Shown here piece after piece: positions 34,532 through 59,239 of a stretch of DNA of 64,000 nt (the first letter of the stretch is position 1; every line of letters begins with the position of its first letter). This DNA comes from an uncultured Actinomycetes bacterium (GTDB taxonomy: Bacteria; Actinomycetota; UBA4738; HRBIN12), in contig CAVPIB010000007.1 in assembly GCA_963704885.1 (NCBI GenBank), positions 160,001-224,000 on the forward strand, read 5' to 3'. The translations under genes were made by a program, and so were the position numbers. The notes beneath the pieces are model-generated. The model did no database searches. It saw only the letters and a program-made list of their open reading frames with translations, and was not told where the DNA came from.

Positions 34532-34822
34532 TTCACCGCGTGGAGCGTGAGCAGCACGAACCCCTCCTCGAACGTTGCCGGCACGGTCGTCGCTCCGGCG
34601 ATCGCCTCGGACATCGTCACCGACACCACGACCCGACCGCAAGCCATCTTCGGTCGGAGGTCTGGCGCCAGCAACTCGGGCGCTTGATCGGGGGGTGCTC
34701 CGACGCCCCTGCAGGGGAGTAGAACCCCAAGCACCCAGCGTCGAACGTCTCGTGATGGCCCCGGTGGCTGAGGTCCGGTCCTAGCCGTTCAGCTCCCGCC
34801 CTGGGTGAATGCGCCCTATAGG

Positions 34823-35416
34823 ATGTGGTCGTTGTCCGCCTATCTCGCGCTCTTCGCATCCTCGATCGGACCCGTGTCGCTGTTCCTGGCGTTGCTAGCC
34901 GTGCTCGCGCAGGTGAGCGTGCTCGTCGCCGTCGTGTTATGGGTGGCGGCGAGGTTCTCGGACGGTGCGGCCCGAACCAAGGCACGTCTCCTGGGCGCGA
35001 TCGGTCCATCGGCATCGTGGCTCGCCTGGGGGGTGGCACTCGTTTGCACCCTTGGCAGCCTCTACTACTCCGAGGTTGCCCACTTCGTTCCGTGCAAGCT
35101 CTGTTGGTACCAGCGGATCGCTATGTATCCGCTGGTGGTGGTGCTTGGCGTGGCGGCATGGCGCCAGCGAACCGAGATCGCTCGTGCCACCTTGCCTCTC
35201 GTCGCCATCGGCGCGGCGATCTCGACCTACCACTACCTGCTGGAGCGGTTCCCTTCGTTGGAGAGCGCTGCCAGTTGTGACCCCTCCGCGCCATGCACGG
35301 TGGTGTGGGTGTGGCGGTTCCACTACCTGTCGATCCCGGCCATGGCCCTGAGCGGCTTCGCGTTGATCGCCGTCCTCATCCTCATCGCGACCGACCCCGA
35401 CCCCGGAACGGAGTGA
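34823..35416 (+). CDS. dsbB: Disulfide bond formation protein B (BdbC/DsbB family)
   Basis: GSLYYSE...[14 protein letters not shown] and second Cys pair SCDPSAPC. Confidence 0.9.
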
Positions 35417-36075
35417 CCACGATGCCGTCAGCCAGCAAACGTCGAGCGATGGAGCGGGAGCACCGGCGACGTCAGATGCGCACCGTCGGTATCGCGGTGG
35501 CGGCTGTCGCCGCGGTCGCGATCGCGGCGATCGTGGTGAGCGCGCTCGGGGGTGAGGAGTCAACCGACCCCCGGGTCAGTCAGACAAGGCCCGTCACCGT
35601 AGCGGGCGAGCCGCTCCCGGCCTTCGGCGCGGAGCCAGATCCCGCCGTCGGGATGGCGGCGCCGGGCCTCGAAGGAGAGACGTTCGACGGTTCGCCGATC
35701 TCGATCACGCCAGGCCAGGGGCCGATGGCGATCTGGTTCGTGGCGCACTGGTGTCCGCACTGCCAAGCCGAGGTGCCCCGTATCGTCGCGCTCGCGGAAC
35801 AGGGCAAGCTCCCTGACGGTGTCCAGATCGCCGCGGTGTCCACGGGCGAAGATCCCGCCGGGCCCAACTACCCCCCGTCGGCCTGGCTCGAGGTCGAAGG
35901 GTGGCCCTTCCCCGTGCTGGCCGACGACGAGAACGGCACGGCCGCCACCGCATACGGGTTGGGGGGGTTCCCGTTCCTCGTACTGGTCGATGCCGACGGG
36001 AACGTCACGGCTCGCGCCTCAGGCGAATTGGGGGACGATGGCATCGTCGCCGCCCTGAACAGCCTGGCGGGCTAG
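35413..36075 (+). CDS. Membrane-anchored thioredoxin-fold oxidoreductase (CPHC, DsbA-like motif on a TlpA scaffold)
   Basis: N-terminal TM; WFVAHWCPHCQAEVP; cis-Pro loop GFP; GTGA overlap with dsbB. Confidence 0.88.
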   Translation: MTTMPSASKRRAMEREHRRRQMRTVGIAVAAVAAVAIAAIVVSALGGEESTDPRVSQTRPVTVAGEPLPAFGAEPDPAVGMAAPGLEGETFDGSPISITPGQGPMAIWFVAHWCPHCQAEVPRIVALAEQGKLPDGVQIAAVSTGEDPAGPNYPPSAWLEVEGWPFPVLADDENGTAATAYGLGGFPFLVLVDADGNVTARASGELGDDGIVAALNSLAG

Positions 36076-36125
36076 ACCGGATGACGCAGCCTTCAGGCGT
36101 CGTCGGTGTGTGTGGGGAAGCTTGC

Positions 36126-36151
36126 GGAATAGACCCGGGCTTTCCGGTGTC
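36126..36151 (+). promoter_or_regulatory. ECF-type promoter GGAATA-N16-TGTC
   Basis: Ends 9 nt before GTG 36161; variant of the local GGAATC-N16-CGTC motif. Confidence 0.55.
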
Positions 36152-36160
36152 CACACTGTT

Positions 36161-36733
36161 GTGAAGTCACCGCGGGCCTTCGCTGGCCTATCCTTGCTCG
36201 TCGGAGCCTTGGCCATGCTCGCGGCCGCGTGCTCGTCAGCGGCCGCTCCTATCGCCGATACGCCTTCGGCCACGAGAAGCACGCCGTCTCCTAGCGTAGC
36301 GGCCTCCGTCGCAGGTCCCGCCACGGTCCCCGAGGTGCTGGACTTCGAGGCTCCCGCTCTGGCCGGCGGGACCCTGAAGGGAGCCGACTACTCGGGCAAG
36401 GACCTCGCCATATGGTTCTGGGCGCCGTGGTGAACGACTTGTCAGGGGGAAGCCCCTGAAGTCGCGCGGGTCTCGCGCGCCTACGCAGGTCAGGTCGAGT
36501 TCCTCGGCATGGCGGGACGCGACTCGACCGACGCCATGCAGAGGTTCGTCGACAACTTCTCCCTGACGTTCCCGCAGGCTGTTTCCGAAGACGGCTCCTT
36601 ATGGGCGCGCTTCGGTGTCCCTTACCAGCCTGCCTGGGTCTTCGTGAACGACGACGGCCACGCTCAGGTCGTCTCCGGTGCGATCCCCGAGGACGATCTG
36701 AAGAAGATCCTCGATCAGCTGATCGCGGCTTAG
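36161..36733 (+). CDS. Selenocysteine-containing TlpA/redoxin lipoprotein (UxxC); TGA 36431-36433 read as Sec
   Basis: Lipobox LAAAC; IWFWAPW-TGA-TTCQGEAPEV continues in frame into ORF 36509-36733 (FGVPYQPAWVFVN); hairpin directly 3' of the TGA. Confidence 0.88.
36435..36464 (+). promoter_or_regulatory. Bacterial SECIS-like hairpin
   Basis: CGACT-(TG bulge)-TCAGGGG-[GAAG loop]-CCCCTGA-AGTCG, starting at the second base after the TGA. Confidence 0.8.
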
Positions 36734-36737
36734 CGTC

Positions 36738-37100
36738 CTACTCGGTCGACCCTCGGAACTCCAGGGCATAGGTCCACCGGGCTGGGTCTTCTGCGTGCTC
36801 GAAGCGCAGGAGCCTGCCCTCCTCGCCGCCGGGCAGGACGACGGGCAGTCCGACGTGCTCGTCCGTCGGCCACAACTCCTGCCTGACATCGTCCTCCAGC
36901 ACCAGGAGGGTCATCGGGTGTTCTCCATCTCGTTCGAGAGGTGGGTGCCAATCGTCGTCCTCGAGCCGCCGGACCCGGACGAAGCGGGGTACCGCGTGCA
37001 GGAGCACCGGCTCACCGGGAGACTTCCAGGCCTTACCGAAGAATCGCCAGCGCTCCCCATCCTTGGACGTCTCGATCACCCAACATTCCTCCGCACCCAT
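36738..37100 (-). CDS. Hypothetical protein, last gene of the tlpA-ccdA operon
   Basis: GGAGG RBS; Trp-rich 120 aa ORF directly after ccdA. Confidence 0.6.
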   Translation of the reverse strand: MGAEECWVIETSKDGERWRFFGKAWKSPGEPVLLHAVPRFVRVRRLEDDDWHPPLERDGEHPMTLLVLEDDVRQELWPTDEHVGLPVVLPGGEEGRLLRFEHAEDPARWTYALEFRGSTE

Positions 37101-37120
37101 GGGCCGCGGTCCTCCCTTCA

Positions 37121-37873
37121 TCACAGCGGGGGCTCGAAGTTGTTGACCAACCGAAGCACCGGCCCCATGACCTGGGTCCATAGACCAGAGATGAGCAACA
37201 CGCCGATCGAGACCATGATGACACCCGATACCAAGGAGATCGCCTCGTGGTGCCGCTTGAGTACGTCGAGGGCTCCCATCAGCCGGCCGACGCCCAGGCC
37301 GAGCAGGATGAACGGCAAGCCGAGGCCCATCGAGTACACGAACAGCAGCAACGATCCCCTTGCAGAGTTGCCCTGAACCGTGGCGAGCGCCAGCGTTCCG
37401 GCCAGGACCGGACCGATGCAAGGGGTCCATCCCGCGGCGAAGGCCATCCCCAAGGGATAGGCCGATGCGCGACCCGGGCGTAGCTTGGTCAGGAAGGGGC
37501 GCCTATCCGCATACAGCGCCGCCGTTCCGGCTCGGAGTCCCTGCAGGATCAAGATCATCCCGACGCCCGCCACCACGACTCCCGCGATCCGCTGCCCCGT
37601 CTGCGACCGAACGATGGGCACGAGCGTTCCCGCGAACGCACCCAGCGCGGTGAACACGGTGGCGAACCCCGCCACGAAGAACAGCATGGGTGCGATGTCG
37701 GGTCGCGTCGTCACACCGCTCGTTCCACCTACCGCCGCACGCGCTTGCGTGCCGGAGACGAACGAGAGATAGCCGGGCACGAGCGGCAACACGCATGGTG
37801 AGGCGAAAGAGACCACGCCCGCTGCGAACGCTATGAGTGGCGCCCACCAAGCCGTGAGATCGAAGACCGACAT
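37121..37873 (-). CDS. ccdA: Cytochrome c biogenesis / thiol-disulfide transporter CcdA
   Basis: AGVVSFASPCVLPLVPGYL and FAAGWTPCIGPVL; six TM segments. Confidence 0.93.
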   Translation of the reverse strand: MSVFDLTAWWAPLIAFAAGVVSFASPCVLPLVPGYLSFVSGTQARAAVGGTSGVTTRPDIAPMLFFVAGFATVFTALGAFAGTLVPIVRSQTGQRIAGVVVAGVGMILILQGLRAGTAALYADRRPFLTKLRPGRASAYPLGMAFAAGWTPCIGPVLAGTLALATVQGNSARGSLLLFVYSMGLGLPFILLGLGVGRLMGALDVLKRHHEAISLVSGVIMVSIGVLLISGLWTQVMGPVLRLVNNFEPPL

Positions 37874-37876
37874 CGG

Positions 37877-38500
37877 TCAGGCTGTGACGCCGAGATCGGT
37901 TTCGATCAGCTGCTCCAGGGACGCGGCGTCCAACCCACCGACCCAGACCTCGGCGATCTCCCCTCCGGGACGGATGAAGATCGTGGTCGGCATCCCCACC
38001 CCACCTGAGGCATTGAAGAAGACCCCGCTGCGGTCGATCGCTGTCGGATAGGTGATCCCGGTCTCCTTGGCGAGCGCGATGCTGGCGCTCGCGGCATCGC
38101 TCTGTGAGATCCCAAGGAAGGCGACCTGGTCACCAAGCTTCTTATGTACCTGCTCGAAGTCCGGCATCTCACCGATGCAGTTGGGGCACCACGACGCGAA
38201 GAAGTTGATAACGAGCGGCTTGTCGGCCAGCGTCGAGTACTCGACCGTGCCGCCCCCTTCGAGCGCCGGCAACTCCAAACTCTCCAGGGTCCCGCCGGTC
38301 CGGATATCCCCCGCGTAGGCGACTCCGCCGGCGCCGTTGCGGATCAGGAGGAAACCGATCCCCACGACGGCGATCAAGACCACGGCTGCGATACCCGCCG
38401 AGCGCAGTCGGGCCTTGTGACGGGCGTGCTTCGCTCGCCTCTCACGAGCTGCTCGCGCCTGTACATTCCTCTCGCCTTTGCTCGCGGCGCGCTCAGCCAC
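37877..38500 (-). CDS. TlpA/ResA-like membrane-anchored disulfide reductase
   Basis: PLVINFFASWCPNCIGEMP, GMPTTIFI; AGGAGG RBS before GTG 38500. Confidence 0.9.
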   Translation of the reverse strand: MAERAASKGERNVQARAARERRAKHARHKARLRSAGIAAVVLIAVVGIGFLLIRNGAGGVAYAGDIRTGGTLESLELPALEGGGTVEYSTLADKPLVINFFASWCPNCIGEMPDFEQVHKKLGDQVAFLGISQSDAASASIALAKETGITYPTAIDRSGVFFNASGGVGMPTTIFIRPGGEIAEVWVGGLDAASLEQLIETDLGVTA

Positions 38501-38564
38501 CCGTCCTCCTGTCGGTCGGGGTTTCCTCGCATGGCCGCGGTCACCCCGCGGCCTCAGCATGTCC

Positions 38565-38626
38565 GACGCCCGTGGACACCGCGCGATTCCGCACCTAGGG
38601 GGAATCTTCGAACAGGGAGCGGCGTC
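38565..38626. promoter_or_regulatory. Back-to-back ECF-type promoters, both GGAATC-N16-CGTC
   Basis: Minus strand 38590->38565 toward tlpA-ccdA; plus strand 38601->38626 toward DUF3179. Confidence 0.75.
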
Positions 38627-38663
38627 CCAAGAGAAAGATGTTCATGCCAGGGAGTCAGCGCCG

Positions 38664-39815
38664 ATGAGGATCGGGCGCATCGCCGCGCTGATAGCGGCGC
38701 TCGCGGTCTTCGCCGCAGCTTGCAGCGGCGGAGCCACCCGCTCGCCGGATGCCGGTGAAAGCGCCTCCGCATCCGATAGCTCGTCGGAGGGAGTGACGCC
38801 ACCGCTCATCGATCTCGACGACATCATCTCCGGCGGTCCTCCGCCCGACGGCATCCCGCCGATCGACGACCCGAAGTTCCTGGCGCCTGAAGACGTCACG
38901 TTCCTGGTTCCCCAGGAACCAGTGATCGCGGTCGAGGTCGAGGGTGTGGCGAAGGCGTACCCGATCCGCATCCTGATGTGGCACGAGATCGTGAACGACG
39001 TCTTCGACGGCACGCCCGTCGTAGTGACGTACTGCCCTCTATGTAACACGGGGATCGCATACCTCCGCCCAACCATCGACGGAGAGCTCCTCGACTTCGG
39101 GACCAGCGGAAAGCTCTACAACTCGAACCTGATCATGTACGACCGCCAGACCAACTCTTACTGGCCCCAGGCGATGGGTAAGGCGGTCGTCGGGCCACTC
39201 ACGGGTGAGGAGTTGGAGTTCGTGCCGGCTCGGATCCTGTCGTGGGGGGACTGGTTGCTGGCCTACCCCGACGGGTTCGTGCTCTCGACCGACACGGGGG
39301 TGTCTCGGACGTACGGGAGCAATCCGTACGCCGGGTACGACCACGAATCGGTCCCATTCCTGTTCGCCGGCGAAACCGACCCACGGCTTCGCGCTAAGGA
39401 GCACATCCTGGGGATCGCCGGCGAGGGCGGCGCGATCGCGTTCCCGTTTTCCGAGCTCGCGAGTCGGGCGACGGGTGGCGCGACCGTGGTTCAAGGTTCG
39501 TTCGGCGGCCCGCGCCTGGTGGTCTTCTGGCAGGCGGGAACGGTGTCCGCTCTTGACGCGGCAGAGATCCCCGAGTCAGAGGATGTGGGTGCCGCCGCTG
39601 CGTACGTCCCCGTCGTCGATGGGCAGCGCCTGACTTTCGAGGTGCAAGGCGGGCGCTTCGTAGACCAGCAGACGGGGTCGGTGTGGTCGATCGACGGCCG
39701 CGCGCTCACCGGTCAGCTGGCGGGTTCCCGGCTCGAGGTGGCCTTGGCTATCGATAGCTTCTGGTTCGACTGGGCAGCCTTCCATCCTGAAACGGAGATA
39801 TTCGGACAGGCGTGA
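38664..39815 (+). CDS. DUF3179 domain lipoprotein (CxxC form)
   Basis: Lipobox FAAAC; GGPPPDGIPPIDDP, WHEIVND, TYCPLCNTG, SGKLYNSNLIMYDRQT, FWFDWAAFHP. Confidence 0.88.
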   Translation: MRIGRIAALIAALAVFAAACSGGATRSPDAGESASASDSSSEGVTPPLIDLDDIISGGPPPDGIPPIDDPKFLAPEDVTFLVPQEPVIAVEVEGVAKAYPIRILMWHEIVNDVFDGTPVVVTYCPLCNTGIAYLRPTIDGELLDFGTSGKLYNSNLIMYDRQTNSYWPQAMGKAVVGPLTGEELEFVPARILSWGDWLLAYPDGFVLSTDTGVSRTYGSNPYAGYDHESVPFLFAGETDPRLRAKEHILGIAGEGGAIAFPFSELASRATGGATVVQGSFGGPRLVVFWQAGTVSALDAAEIPESEDVGAAAAYVPVVDGQRLTFEVQGGRFVDQQTGSVWSIDGRALTGQLAGSRLEVALAIDSFWFDWAAFHPETEIFGQA

Positions 39816-58879: not shown

Positions 58880-59239
58880 ATGCGGCGACGGGGGATCACT
58901 GTGATCGCGATGTCGGCGGTCTTGACGCTGTTCGGTGGGAGCGCCGCGCTGGCCGCGGTTCCCAGCACCATCTCGATCGGGTTCAACCAGGAAACCGAGC
59001 ACTTCCACGGCAAGGTGCGTTCCTCAGATGACGAATGCTCGGCAGGGCGGACCGTGAAGCTCTTCGAGAAGACGGCCGACGGGCGAACGCTCCAAGGCAA
59101 GGCCACCACCAACGCTAACGGCAAGTGGGACATCGAGCTCATGCAGGCTGAGGGCTTCTACTTCGCAGTGACGCCCAAGCAGAAGGCCATGCACGCCAAG
59201 TGCGGGCGAGCGGTCTCGCGCATGGTCGACGTGATGTAG
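58880..59239 (+). CDS. Secreted hypothetical protein (beta-rich, one Cys pair)
   Basis: AAGGAGG RBS; signal peptide ending AALA. Confidence 0.75.
   Translation: MRRRGITVIAMSAVLTLFGGSAALAAVPSTISIGFNQETEHFHGKVRSSDDECSAGRTVKLFEKTADGRTLQGKATTNANGKWDIELMQAEGFYFAVTPKQKAMHAKCGRAVSRMVDVM

Follow-up and report, generated by a model that had tools for sequence, protein, structure and literature searches.

The window analysed here, the whole 64,000-nucleotide stretch taken from contig 7 of the assembly of an uncultured Actinomycetes bacterium (3.0 Mb in 20 contigs, 97% complete; genome label G000), holds at 36161-36733 on the forward strand a reading frame crossed by an in-frame TGA, which is interpreted below as the selenocysteine (Sec, U) codon of an exported thioredoxin-like protein. 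Two open reading frames (ORFs) of translation table 11, 36110-36433 and 36509-36733, share one frame, and the former stops at the TGA directly after ...IWFWAPW, with ACG ACT TGT next (...ATA TGG TTC TGG GCG CCG TGG TGA ACG ACT TGT CAG..., TGA at 36431-36433). When TGA was translated as U, 36161-36733 gave 190 residues with no further stop before the TAG at 36731-36733, and the peptide across the site reads ...DLAIWFWAPW-U-TTCQGEAPEVAR. An earlier reading of the letters made without database searches (the sequence-only reading) had noticed that the first ORF stops at the first Cys of a thioredoxin motif and that the frame runs on through the second, and this was confirmed in the sequence. The features of the gene are:

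36161-36733, forward strand: whole candidate selenoprotein gene, 190 codons, with GTG start, TGA (Sec) as codon 91 and TAG stop at 36731-36733.
36161-36232, forward strand: predicted lipoprotein signal peptide MKSPRAFAGLSLLVGALAMLAAA-C with putatively lipidated Cys24 at 36230-36232, from the sequence and from a Cys kept in homologues.
36431-36433, forward strand: UGA presumably read as Sec (U91), the N-terminal attacking residue of UxxC, aligned to the first Cys of DsbF WFWAPWCPTC, conserved as TGA and directly followed by helix 92-107.
36440-36442, forward strand: TGT for Cys94, the putative resolving residue of UxxC, from the sequence and from UxxU relatives (TGA in three relatives).
36435-36464, forward strand: hairpin 1, with a 5-bp lower stem (36435-36439/36460-36464), a UG bulge (36440-36441), a 7-bp upper stem (36442-36448/36453-36459) and a GAAG loop (36449-36452) starting 15 nt after the UGA; from folding, covariation and recoding controls.
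36463-36479, forward strand: hairpin 2, the proposed SelB-binding apical hairpin, with a 6-bp G+C stem and a GGUCU loop (36469-36473) 35 nt after the UGA.

Judged from the sequence, GTG 36161 is the start codon that best suits a signal peptide, the upstream GTG at 36110 being also possible. The product from GTG 36161 begins MKSPRAFAGLSLLVGALAMLAAAC-SS, and with this start the LAAAC lipobox pointed out in the sequence-only reading is present in the N-terminus, its Cys being Cys24 (36230-36232). In the predicted lipobox (...LAMLAAA-C), three Ala residues (-1 to -3) precede the Cys and Leu is at -4; the sequence agrees with the relaxed lipobox consensus but departs from the strict L-[AS]-[GA]-C. 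A Cys after the hydrophobic stretch is kept in the printed orthologues and is nearly invariant (at least 90%) in the Cys homologues of alignment A2. In a profile search of the genome lspA was present (97 bits, above cut-off); for lgt, the matches scored 111 and 99 bits where 118.9 are required, a slight shortfall that weighs against lipidation. On this sequence evidence lipidation at Cys24 is likely rather than proven.

Three Pfam families matched the read-through protein across the TGA: AhpC-TSA (residues 59-167, 46.8 bits against a cut-off of 26), Redoxin (residues 61-171, 39.7 bits against 26.6) and Thioredoxin (38.1 bits against 23.5, spanning residue 91). Among proteins of known structure, Mycobacterium tuberculosis DsbF (3IOS) matched with an E-value of 1.8e-34 and 46% identity, WFWAPWCPTCQGEAP lying opposite WFWAPW-U-TTCQGEAP, and DsbE/Mpt53 (1LU4) with 1.3e-27 and 40%. 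The AlphaFold model, made with 12 sequences, had a predicted local distance difference test score (pLDDT) of at least 93 over residues 61-190 and a helix at 92-107 right after U91, with residues 1-55 disordered as expected for a signal peptide and linker. Foldseek returned 3IOS first (TMt 0.95, root-mean-square deviation 1.1 Å over 134 columns), 1LU4 second (TMt 0.92) and ResA structures next (TMt about 0.85). Because the Pfam matches, the model and the DsbF match all cross the TGA, the two ORFs make up one protein with a single domain, not two. In addition, for the conserved Pro loop that faces the active site in this fold, YQPAW of the window protein stands opposite QPAY of DsbF, and Q156 is invariant in alignment A2.

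Sequence and model thus read together point to a thioredoxin-fold lipoprotein of the DsbE/DsbF (TlpA/ResA-like) type with the motif WFWAPW-U-TT-C. DsbF (Rv1677) and DsbE/Mpt53 (Rv2878c) show the same WFWAPW-x-xx-C-QGEAP context and are likewise single thioredoxin-like domains with an extra N-terminal hairpin region, exported or membrane-tethered, whereas Cys stands first in their motif in place of Sec and the middle residues are PT or PF instead of TT; DsbF is also annotated as a lipoprotein. The ResA/TlpA/CcmG (DsbE) proteins have the same fold and are membrane-anchored and extracytoplasmic, and a CcdA-type transporter lies near the window gene, but they are only 21-24% identical to the window protein and are dedicated reductants with CxxC. 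It counts against the assignment that no NCBIfam model scored over its cut-off, the best being a ResA subfamily with 60 bits against 170; the NCBIfam selenoprotein models also remained below cut-off (WAxxUGC_long, 25 bits against 300).

Orthologues were taken as matches with E-values ≤1e-28 in six-frame searches with the read-through protein, which corresponded to 46-80% protein identity. They were found in 43 of the 223 genomes of the family and 50 of the 294 genomes of the order, and span two families (42/222 and 7/27, the window's own genome left out). These counts include genomes flagged as unpublished (G142 and G200 in the family, also G243 and G248 in the order); without the flagged genomes the numbers are 41/221 and 46/290, with the same outcome. 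TGA was present in 51 of the 52 matching rows, the remaining row (G047) being a contig-end fragment covering residues 94-189 and falling short of the site, and no Cys orthologue was found at this threshold among the 294 genomes of the order. The family search showed an E-value gap from 9e-42 to 5e-24, below which lay CxxC paralogues of ≤39% identity. Of the 36 loci that the family searches supplied, 33 had WFWAPW-U-xx-C in register, two had UxxU and one was the G047 fragment, and TGA occupied the same column in all 33 UxxC orthologues read as well as in four UxxU sequences. The UxxU form, with TGA at both redox positions, occurred in three genomes of one genus (loci L074 in G160, L075 in G159 and L140 in G162) with the motifs WFWAPW-U-ST-U-RGEAPL and WFWAPW-U-HT-U-QGEAPL, the two UGAs being 9 nt apart and followed by the same two hairpins; a fourth genome of this genus (G147) has a single TGA.

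Full-length Cys homologues with 35-49% identity, WFWAPWCxxC and a lipobox Cys were found in other Actinomycetota; in 11 Cys homologues, as in DsbF/DsbE, the first Cys of this motif stands in the U91 column. As far as sequences tell, the Sec form and the Cys homologues make the usual Sec/Cys pairing. The sequence-only reading had asked for homologues with Cys or TGA at the site and for covariation in the hairpin; TGA and hairpin proved to be kept, with compensatory changes, and the Cys homologues align in the same column. Reads with TGC or TGT had been named as evidence against Sec, and the contigs (not raw reads) of four public runs from three studies list no other letter at 36431-36433, with differences at nearby sites. 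The public proteins P0028 (8 members) and P0033, of 105 and 123 residues, end at ...IWFWAPW and are orthologues cut by gene callers at the Sec codon; the expectation that standard pipelines would split the gene was thereby borne out, and the word "hidden" used for it is fair in that sense. Four weaker redoxin matches with one TGA in relatives (L128-L131) showed no Sec-like site on reading, their stops probably lying outside the domain.

The genome contains the Sec machinery that the sequence-only reading had implied (selA, selB, selC and selD). The genes selA (493 bits) and selB (321 bits; 361112-362935), both over cut-off, are adjacent on contig 1, selD (373 bits, over cut-off) was found twice, on contigs 14 and 20, and tRNA-Sec scored 70.9 bits against the Rfam tRNA-Sec model and was called SeC with anticodon TCA by ARAGORN. 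The two selD matches are equal in score (372.7 bits; contig 20, 5731-6654, forward strand; contig 14, 8433-9356, reverse strand) and lie on small contigs, and are either a real duplication or one region assembled twice. Across the family, selA was found in 208 of 223 genomes and in 83 of the 85 of good quality. The genome also encodes, outside the window, a Sec formate dehydrogenase (FdhA), a molybdopterin oxidoreductase with one in-frame TGA (...IDSCNRT-U-HAPSVVGL), and such a gene was present in 57 of the 61 family genomes searched:

G000 contig 4, 58831-about 60800, forward strand: Sec-FdhA alpha subunit, TGA at 59077, with an fdhD-like gene just upstream.

In the selenocysteine insertion sequence (SECIS) of this fdhA gene, the GGUCU loop starts 18 nt after the UGA on a 6-bp stem; the loop is the same in 30/30 family FdhA genes, and the stem shows a G-C to C-G swap.

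For the RNA structure of the redoxin gene, 66 nt around the TGA were aligned for 33 orthologues, without gaps and in codon register. The hairpin described in the sequence-only reading (5+7 bp, UG bulge, GAAG loop) folds as claimed and covaries among the orthologues. In the window, the 30 nt after the TGA had a folding energy of -16.3 kcal/mol against -8.36 ± 2.67 in 2000 synonymous recodings, 0.4% of which were as stable; over the orthologues, hairpin 1 had a mean of -11.9 against -5.65 kcal/mol when recoded, and 25 of 32 sequences fell in the lowest 5%. Hairpin 1 pairs columns 18-24 with 29-35, with 83% of the cells paired, and both its helices together gave a covariation of 0.154 against 0.075 ± 0.009, which 0/500 shuffles reached; slid controls were at most 60.6% paired. 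Pair changes include 20-33 (AU 22, GC 8), 23-30 (GC 21, CG 8, AU 1, GU 1) and 18-35 (UA 5, CG 4), and where Glu is replaced by Leu in two sequences, the helix survives by a one-base slide of its 3′ arm. The structure is conserved and its loop is free (GAAG, GCGG, GCCG, UCCG, ACCG, CACCGC and others).

Hairpin 2 pairs columns 38-43 with 49-54 and is almost invariant within the first family, where synonymous third positions are fixed in the stem (GTC 32/33, GCG 33/33, the uncommon CGA 26/33) and the third position of the loop varies. With the second family added, pair 42-50 was GC in 34 sequences, UA in 6 and UG in 1, the compensatory change combining a synonymous substitution (GCG to GCU) in one arm with a replacement of Ala by Glu in the other. 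Pairing reached 96.3% (slid controls at most 69.1%) and covariation 0.151 against 0.061 ± 0.011, again with 0/500 shuffles as high; mean energy was -11.5 against -6.3 kcal/mol when recoded, with 18/32 sequences in the lowest 5%. CxxC paralogues folded less stably over these 30 nt, at -9.0 (14 genes) versus -13.3 (35 genes). No consistent hairpin pair was present in 16 more distant Cys homologues, a loose comparison with several of them from A+T-richer genomes, and an Rfam scan of 36380-36540 returned three noise matches at E 5-7 and no SECIS family.

Several points weigh against the structural evidence. The 66-nt fold had a z-score of only -1.6 against dinucleotide shuffling, 19 of 200 shuffles being as stable, and since such a single-sequence fold is unremarkable in G+C-rich DNA, the case rests on the comparison with other genomes. 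The codon-usage table behind the recoding controls was compiled from long open frames, off-frame ORFs among them being a contamination, and because relatives are not independent, the shuffle counts overstate the support. For hairpin 2, the GC to UA change was probably one event in one family, with two of the six UA sequences coming from genomes flagged as unpublished (G243 and G248), and conservation of the peptide VA(R/Q)VAR could account for part of the near-invariance.

On the whole, we consider 36161-36733 a real gene for an exported, membrane-anchored thioredoxin-like selenoenzyme with Sec in place of the first active-site Cys, with a probability of about 0.88 on the sequence evidence; frame, fold, TGA conservation and Sec machinery all support the 190-residue UxxC selenoprotein proposed in the sequence-only reading. 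It is hardly credible that the TGA is an assembly error or that the two ORFs are the remnants of a CxxC redoxin pseudogene: although standard gene calling yields two fragments, the TGA holds its column in every row that covers it, across two families and with the frame open on both sides, a conserved structured RNA lies exactly 3′ of it, the Sec machinery is complete, and the contigs of the public runs agree at the site. Reading of the UGA as something other than Sec (Cys carried by tRNA-Sec at scarce selenium, near-cognate Trp or Cys, or a lineage-wide reassignment of TGA) is very unlikely, if a little less so. Cys insertion at UGA through the Sec pathway is known under selenium limitation; however, TGA is an ordinary stop in these genomes (it closes the reading frame of 23 of the 33 orthologues), the site is a redox Cys position with Cys homologues, as in a classic Sec/Cys pair, and a SECIS-like loop is shared with FdhA. 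As a point against the main reading, no RNA run was listed as containing the sequence, and the best DNA run contained 0.24 of the words.

Which of the two hairpins is read by SelB is less clear. The SECIS hairpin of the sequence-only reading is real and conserved, but the likelier SelB site is the next hairpin at 36463-36479, which covaries and whose GGUCU loop equals that of the FdhA SECIS. We lean towards SelB binding hairpin 2, with hairpin 1 serving as a spacer helix. Loops of hairpin 2 in the orthologues were GGGUC (17), AGGUC (8), AGGUG (5), AGGUU (2) and AGUUG (1), with an invariant G at alignment column 45 (42/42 sequences), and GGTCT-loop hairpins of at least 5 bp occur 65 times in 6.03 Mb (both strands), or 2.4e-4 expected per 22-nt window. 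The available text on the bacterial SECIS (bSECIS) model (PMC13188914) gives a loop of 3-9 nt, an upper stem of 4-16 bp, a G within loop positions 1 and 2, a UGA-to-loop distance of 16-37 nt, and a minimum free energy ≤ -7.5 kcal/mol; hairpin 2, with 5 nt, 6 bp, 34-35 nt and a mean of -11.5 kcal/mol, lies within all of these limits. The FdhA SECIS is alike in its 6-bp G+C stem, its identical GGUCU loop and its place 3′ of an in-frame UGA, but differs in that its loop stands at 18 nt with no helix between, whereas the window gene has 34-35 nt with hairpin 1 between. Folding hairpin 1 out of the way leaves 8 + 2 + 6 = 16 nt between the UGA and loop 2, close to the 18 nt of FdhA. Binding at hairpin 2 would also explain the UxxU forms, in which the second UGA abuts hairpin 1 and lies 25 nt from loop 2.

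Spacing and loop sequence supply points against both hairpins: the hairpin 1 loop, at 15 nt by our count, is one short of the 16-37 nt of bSECIS, about 8 of the 33 orthologues lack G in its first two positions, and the 34-35 nt of hairpin 2 is near the upper limit and far from the 18 nt of FdhA. In the available text of a structural paper, a conserved loop G lies about 20 nt after the UGA (PMC4605307), and as this spacing falls on the hairpin 1 loop, it counts against hairpin 2. That hairpin 1 (GAAG, 15 nt) is itself the SECIS bound by SelB, and hairpin 2 a by-product of VA(R/Q)VAR in G+C-rich codons, is nevertheless doubtful. Its spacing is canonical by that measure and beside the FdhA of this genome, it shows the clearest covariation, including the register shifts that save the helix at Glu to Leu, and its loop begins with G in G000; yet this loop sequence varies among orthologues, while the family FdhA genes offer SelB an invariant GGUCU loop and hairpin 2 keeps its column-45 G throughout, with fixed synonymous positions in the stem, a varying third position in the loop, and a compensatory change that includes a synonymous site. 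In the UxxU forms, moreover, there is no spacing between the second UGA and hairpin 1.

With hairpin 2 as the preferred binding site, SelB with Sec-tRNA(Sec) would decode the UGA at 36431-36433 owing to RNA structure immediately 3′ in the coding sequence. The element would have two parts: hairpin 2 (36463-36479, GGUCU) would be bound by SelB, and hairpin 1 (36442-36459), selected for pairing only, would fold away 18 nt and bring hairpin 2 near the UGA. A distal binding loop of this kind might let one element serve two UGA codons 9 nt apart. Tentatively, one may picture a composite SECIS in which a distal GGU-loop hairpin 34-35 nt away is brought into range by a covarying helix of variable loop, and which let a UxxU, diselenide-forming DsbF-like lipoprotein arise in one genus, possibly re-oxidised without a dedicated partner. 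The redoxin gene and FdhA, which share a loop with spacings 16-17 nt apart and a covarying helix between, would make a case for studying the reach or flexibility of bacterial SelB, and SECIS-based gene finders would probably report the first hairpin.

After synthesis, the signal peptide would export the product, Cys24 would be lipidated, and the enzyme would be seated on the outer face of the cytoplasmic membrane. In the thioredoxin fold, the N-terminal residue of the motif is the exposed nucleophile and the second the resolving residue. By this pattern, Sec91 at the N-terminus of helix 1 would undergo exchange with the thiols or disulfides of substrates by way of a mixed Se-S bond and Cys94 would resolve it, the cycle running between selenol/thiol and selenenylsulfide. 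On its sequence we take the protein to catalyse thiol-disulfide exchange outside the cytoplasm by way of a selenenylsulfide. The neighbouring genes in the window are:

34805-35416, forward strand: DsbB-like membrane protein, upstream (Pfam/ORF).
About 35419-36075, forward strand: membrane-anchored TlpA-like protein with DsbA-type CPHC, upstream (Pfam/ORF).
36738-about 37130, reverse strand: DUF7712 ORF, ending 4 nt past the selenoprotein stop.
37121-37873, reverse strand: CcdA/DsbD_TM electron transporter, convergent (Pfam/ORF).
37877-38560, reverse strand: second TlpA-like protein, CPNC, convergent (Pfam/ORF).
38478-39815, forward strand: DUF3179 protein (338 bits) with a signal-peptide-like N-terminus, adjoining the redox cluster.

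The region 34805-38560 is a cluster of five extracytoplasmic redox genes, the selenoprotein gene included. Conservation of this arrangement was searched by tblastn in flanks of 1.5 kb (4 kb for two loci), and the seven window neighbours (the DsbB-like, CPHC TlpA-like, DUF7712, CcdA, CPNC TlpA-like, DUF3179 and HAD/TPP genes) stood beside 0/36 orthologue loci, the sole matches being the CPNC TlpA-like protein cross-matching the selenoprotein gene itself. As the Dsb-type neighbours are not kept beside the orthologues, the neighbourhood names no partner. Clustering of stop-to-stop ORFs in the flanks gave no usable partner and was swamped by the off-frame ORFs of G+C-rich DNA, and a promoter and terminator scan of 35300-37200 found none.

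By likeness to Mt-DsbF, there is about an even chance that the protein acts as a disulfide-forming oxidant. According to the available text of PMC3853704, Mt-DsbE and Mt-DsbF fold reduced hirudin oxidatively, show no insulin reduction and no RNase unscrambling (isomerase) activity, and have DsbD or Rv2877c as proposed membrane partner. A reductant of the ResA/TlpA/CcmG type, kept reduced by the neighbouring CcdA (37121-37873) and serving cytochrome or copper-protein maturation or the repair of oxidised exported proteins, is possible though less probable. In favour of such a role, the window has CcdA and two further TlpA-like genes less than 2 kb away, the ResA subfamily is the best, if below cut-off, NCBIfam match, and Sec as a rule gives such motifs a lower redox potential. 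The proposed membrane partner of Mt-DsbE/F, DsbD or Rv2877c, points the same way (PMC3853704, available text); but these nearest characterised relatives oxidise hirudin and spare insulin, CcdA adjoins none of the 36 orthologues examined, and the selenoprotein gene follows the DsbB-like/CPHC pair on the same strand at a distance of 85 nt. Should the enzyme be an oxidant like Mt-DsbF, its selenenylsulfide or diselenide might need no dedicated membrane partner for re-oxidation; the lack of a conserved Dsb neighbour would be in keeping with this.

Selenoproteins of this general kind have been reported. Among those of the Sargasso Sea survey are a "Prx-like protein", whose UXXC motif is thioredoxin-like, and a "thiol-disulfide isomerase-like protein" (PMC1088965, Table 3). 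A 2006 survey has a "Prx-like thiol:disulfide oxidoreductase" and a "thiol:disulfide interchange protein" (PMC1794560, Table 1), and the table of a 2026 review includes, among others, a Prx-like thiol:disulfide oxidoreductase (PF00578; UxxC, UxxU) and a Redoxin family protein (PF08534; UxxC) (PMC13188914), the comparison here covering these tables and the text around them. With UxxC and UxxU redoxin selenoproteins in print, the kind is known, the two-Sec form included. The published Prx-like and redoxin selenoproteins are alike in their thioredoxin fold, in having Sec first in a CxxC-type motif and a hairpin that follows the UGA, and in the existence of Cys homologues, and are linked to the window protein by shared Pfam families and the motif alone; the DsbE/DsbF-type lipoprotein clade is either one of the published families or a separate Cys-to-Sec conversion. 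A limited literature search, with survey supplementary tables excluded, returned no account of the mycobacterial DsbE/DsbF type with Sec, a form that we do not claim to be unpublished, and the available text of PMC13188914 holds no mention of Actinobacteria, Actinomycetota, Acidimicrobiia or lipoprotein.

Public protein sets thus lack this conserved exported redox enzyme or contain it in shortened form, and since no NCBIfam model catches the gene, the annotations of at least 50 species-level genomes in the order will miss it. Nature here provides a clean Sec/Cys pair within the DsbE/DsbF type, UxxC and UxxU forms next to CxxC forms of known structure, in which the advantage of selenium to an extracytoplasmic enzyme could be studied.

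Finally, a scan of the genome for hairpins with a GGTCN loop, a stem of at least 5 bp, an in-frame TGA 12-40 nt upstream and an open frame gave 12 candidates, of which only FdhA and the gene at 36161-36733 resembled coding selenoproteins, the other ten being judged by eye. In contig 1, at about 211886 on the forward strand, an in-frame TGA is followed at 32 nt by a hairpin with a GGTCC loop and a 7-bp stem, with open, hydrophobic and protein-like frames on either side (..AGWSALHGP-U-GLSMVETITPVVHGG..); this site could be two adjacent genes or another Sec candidate.

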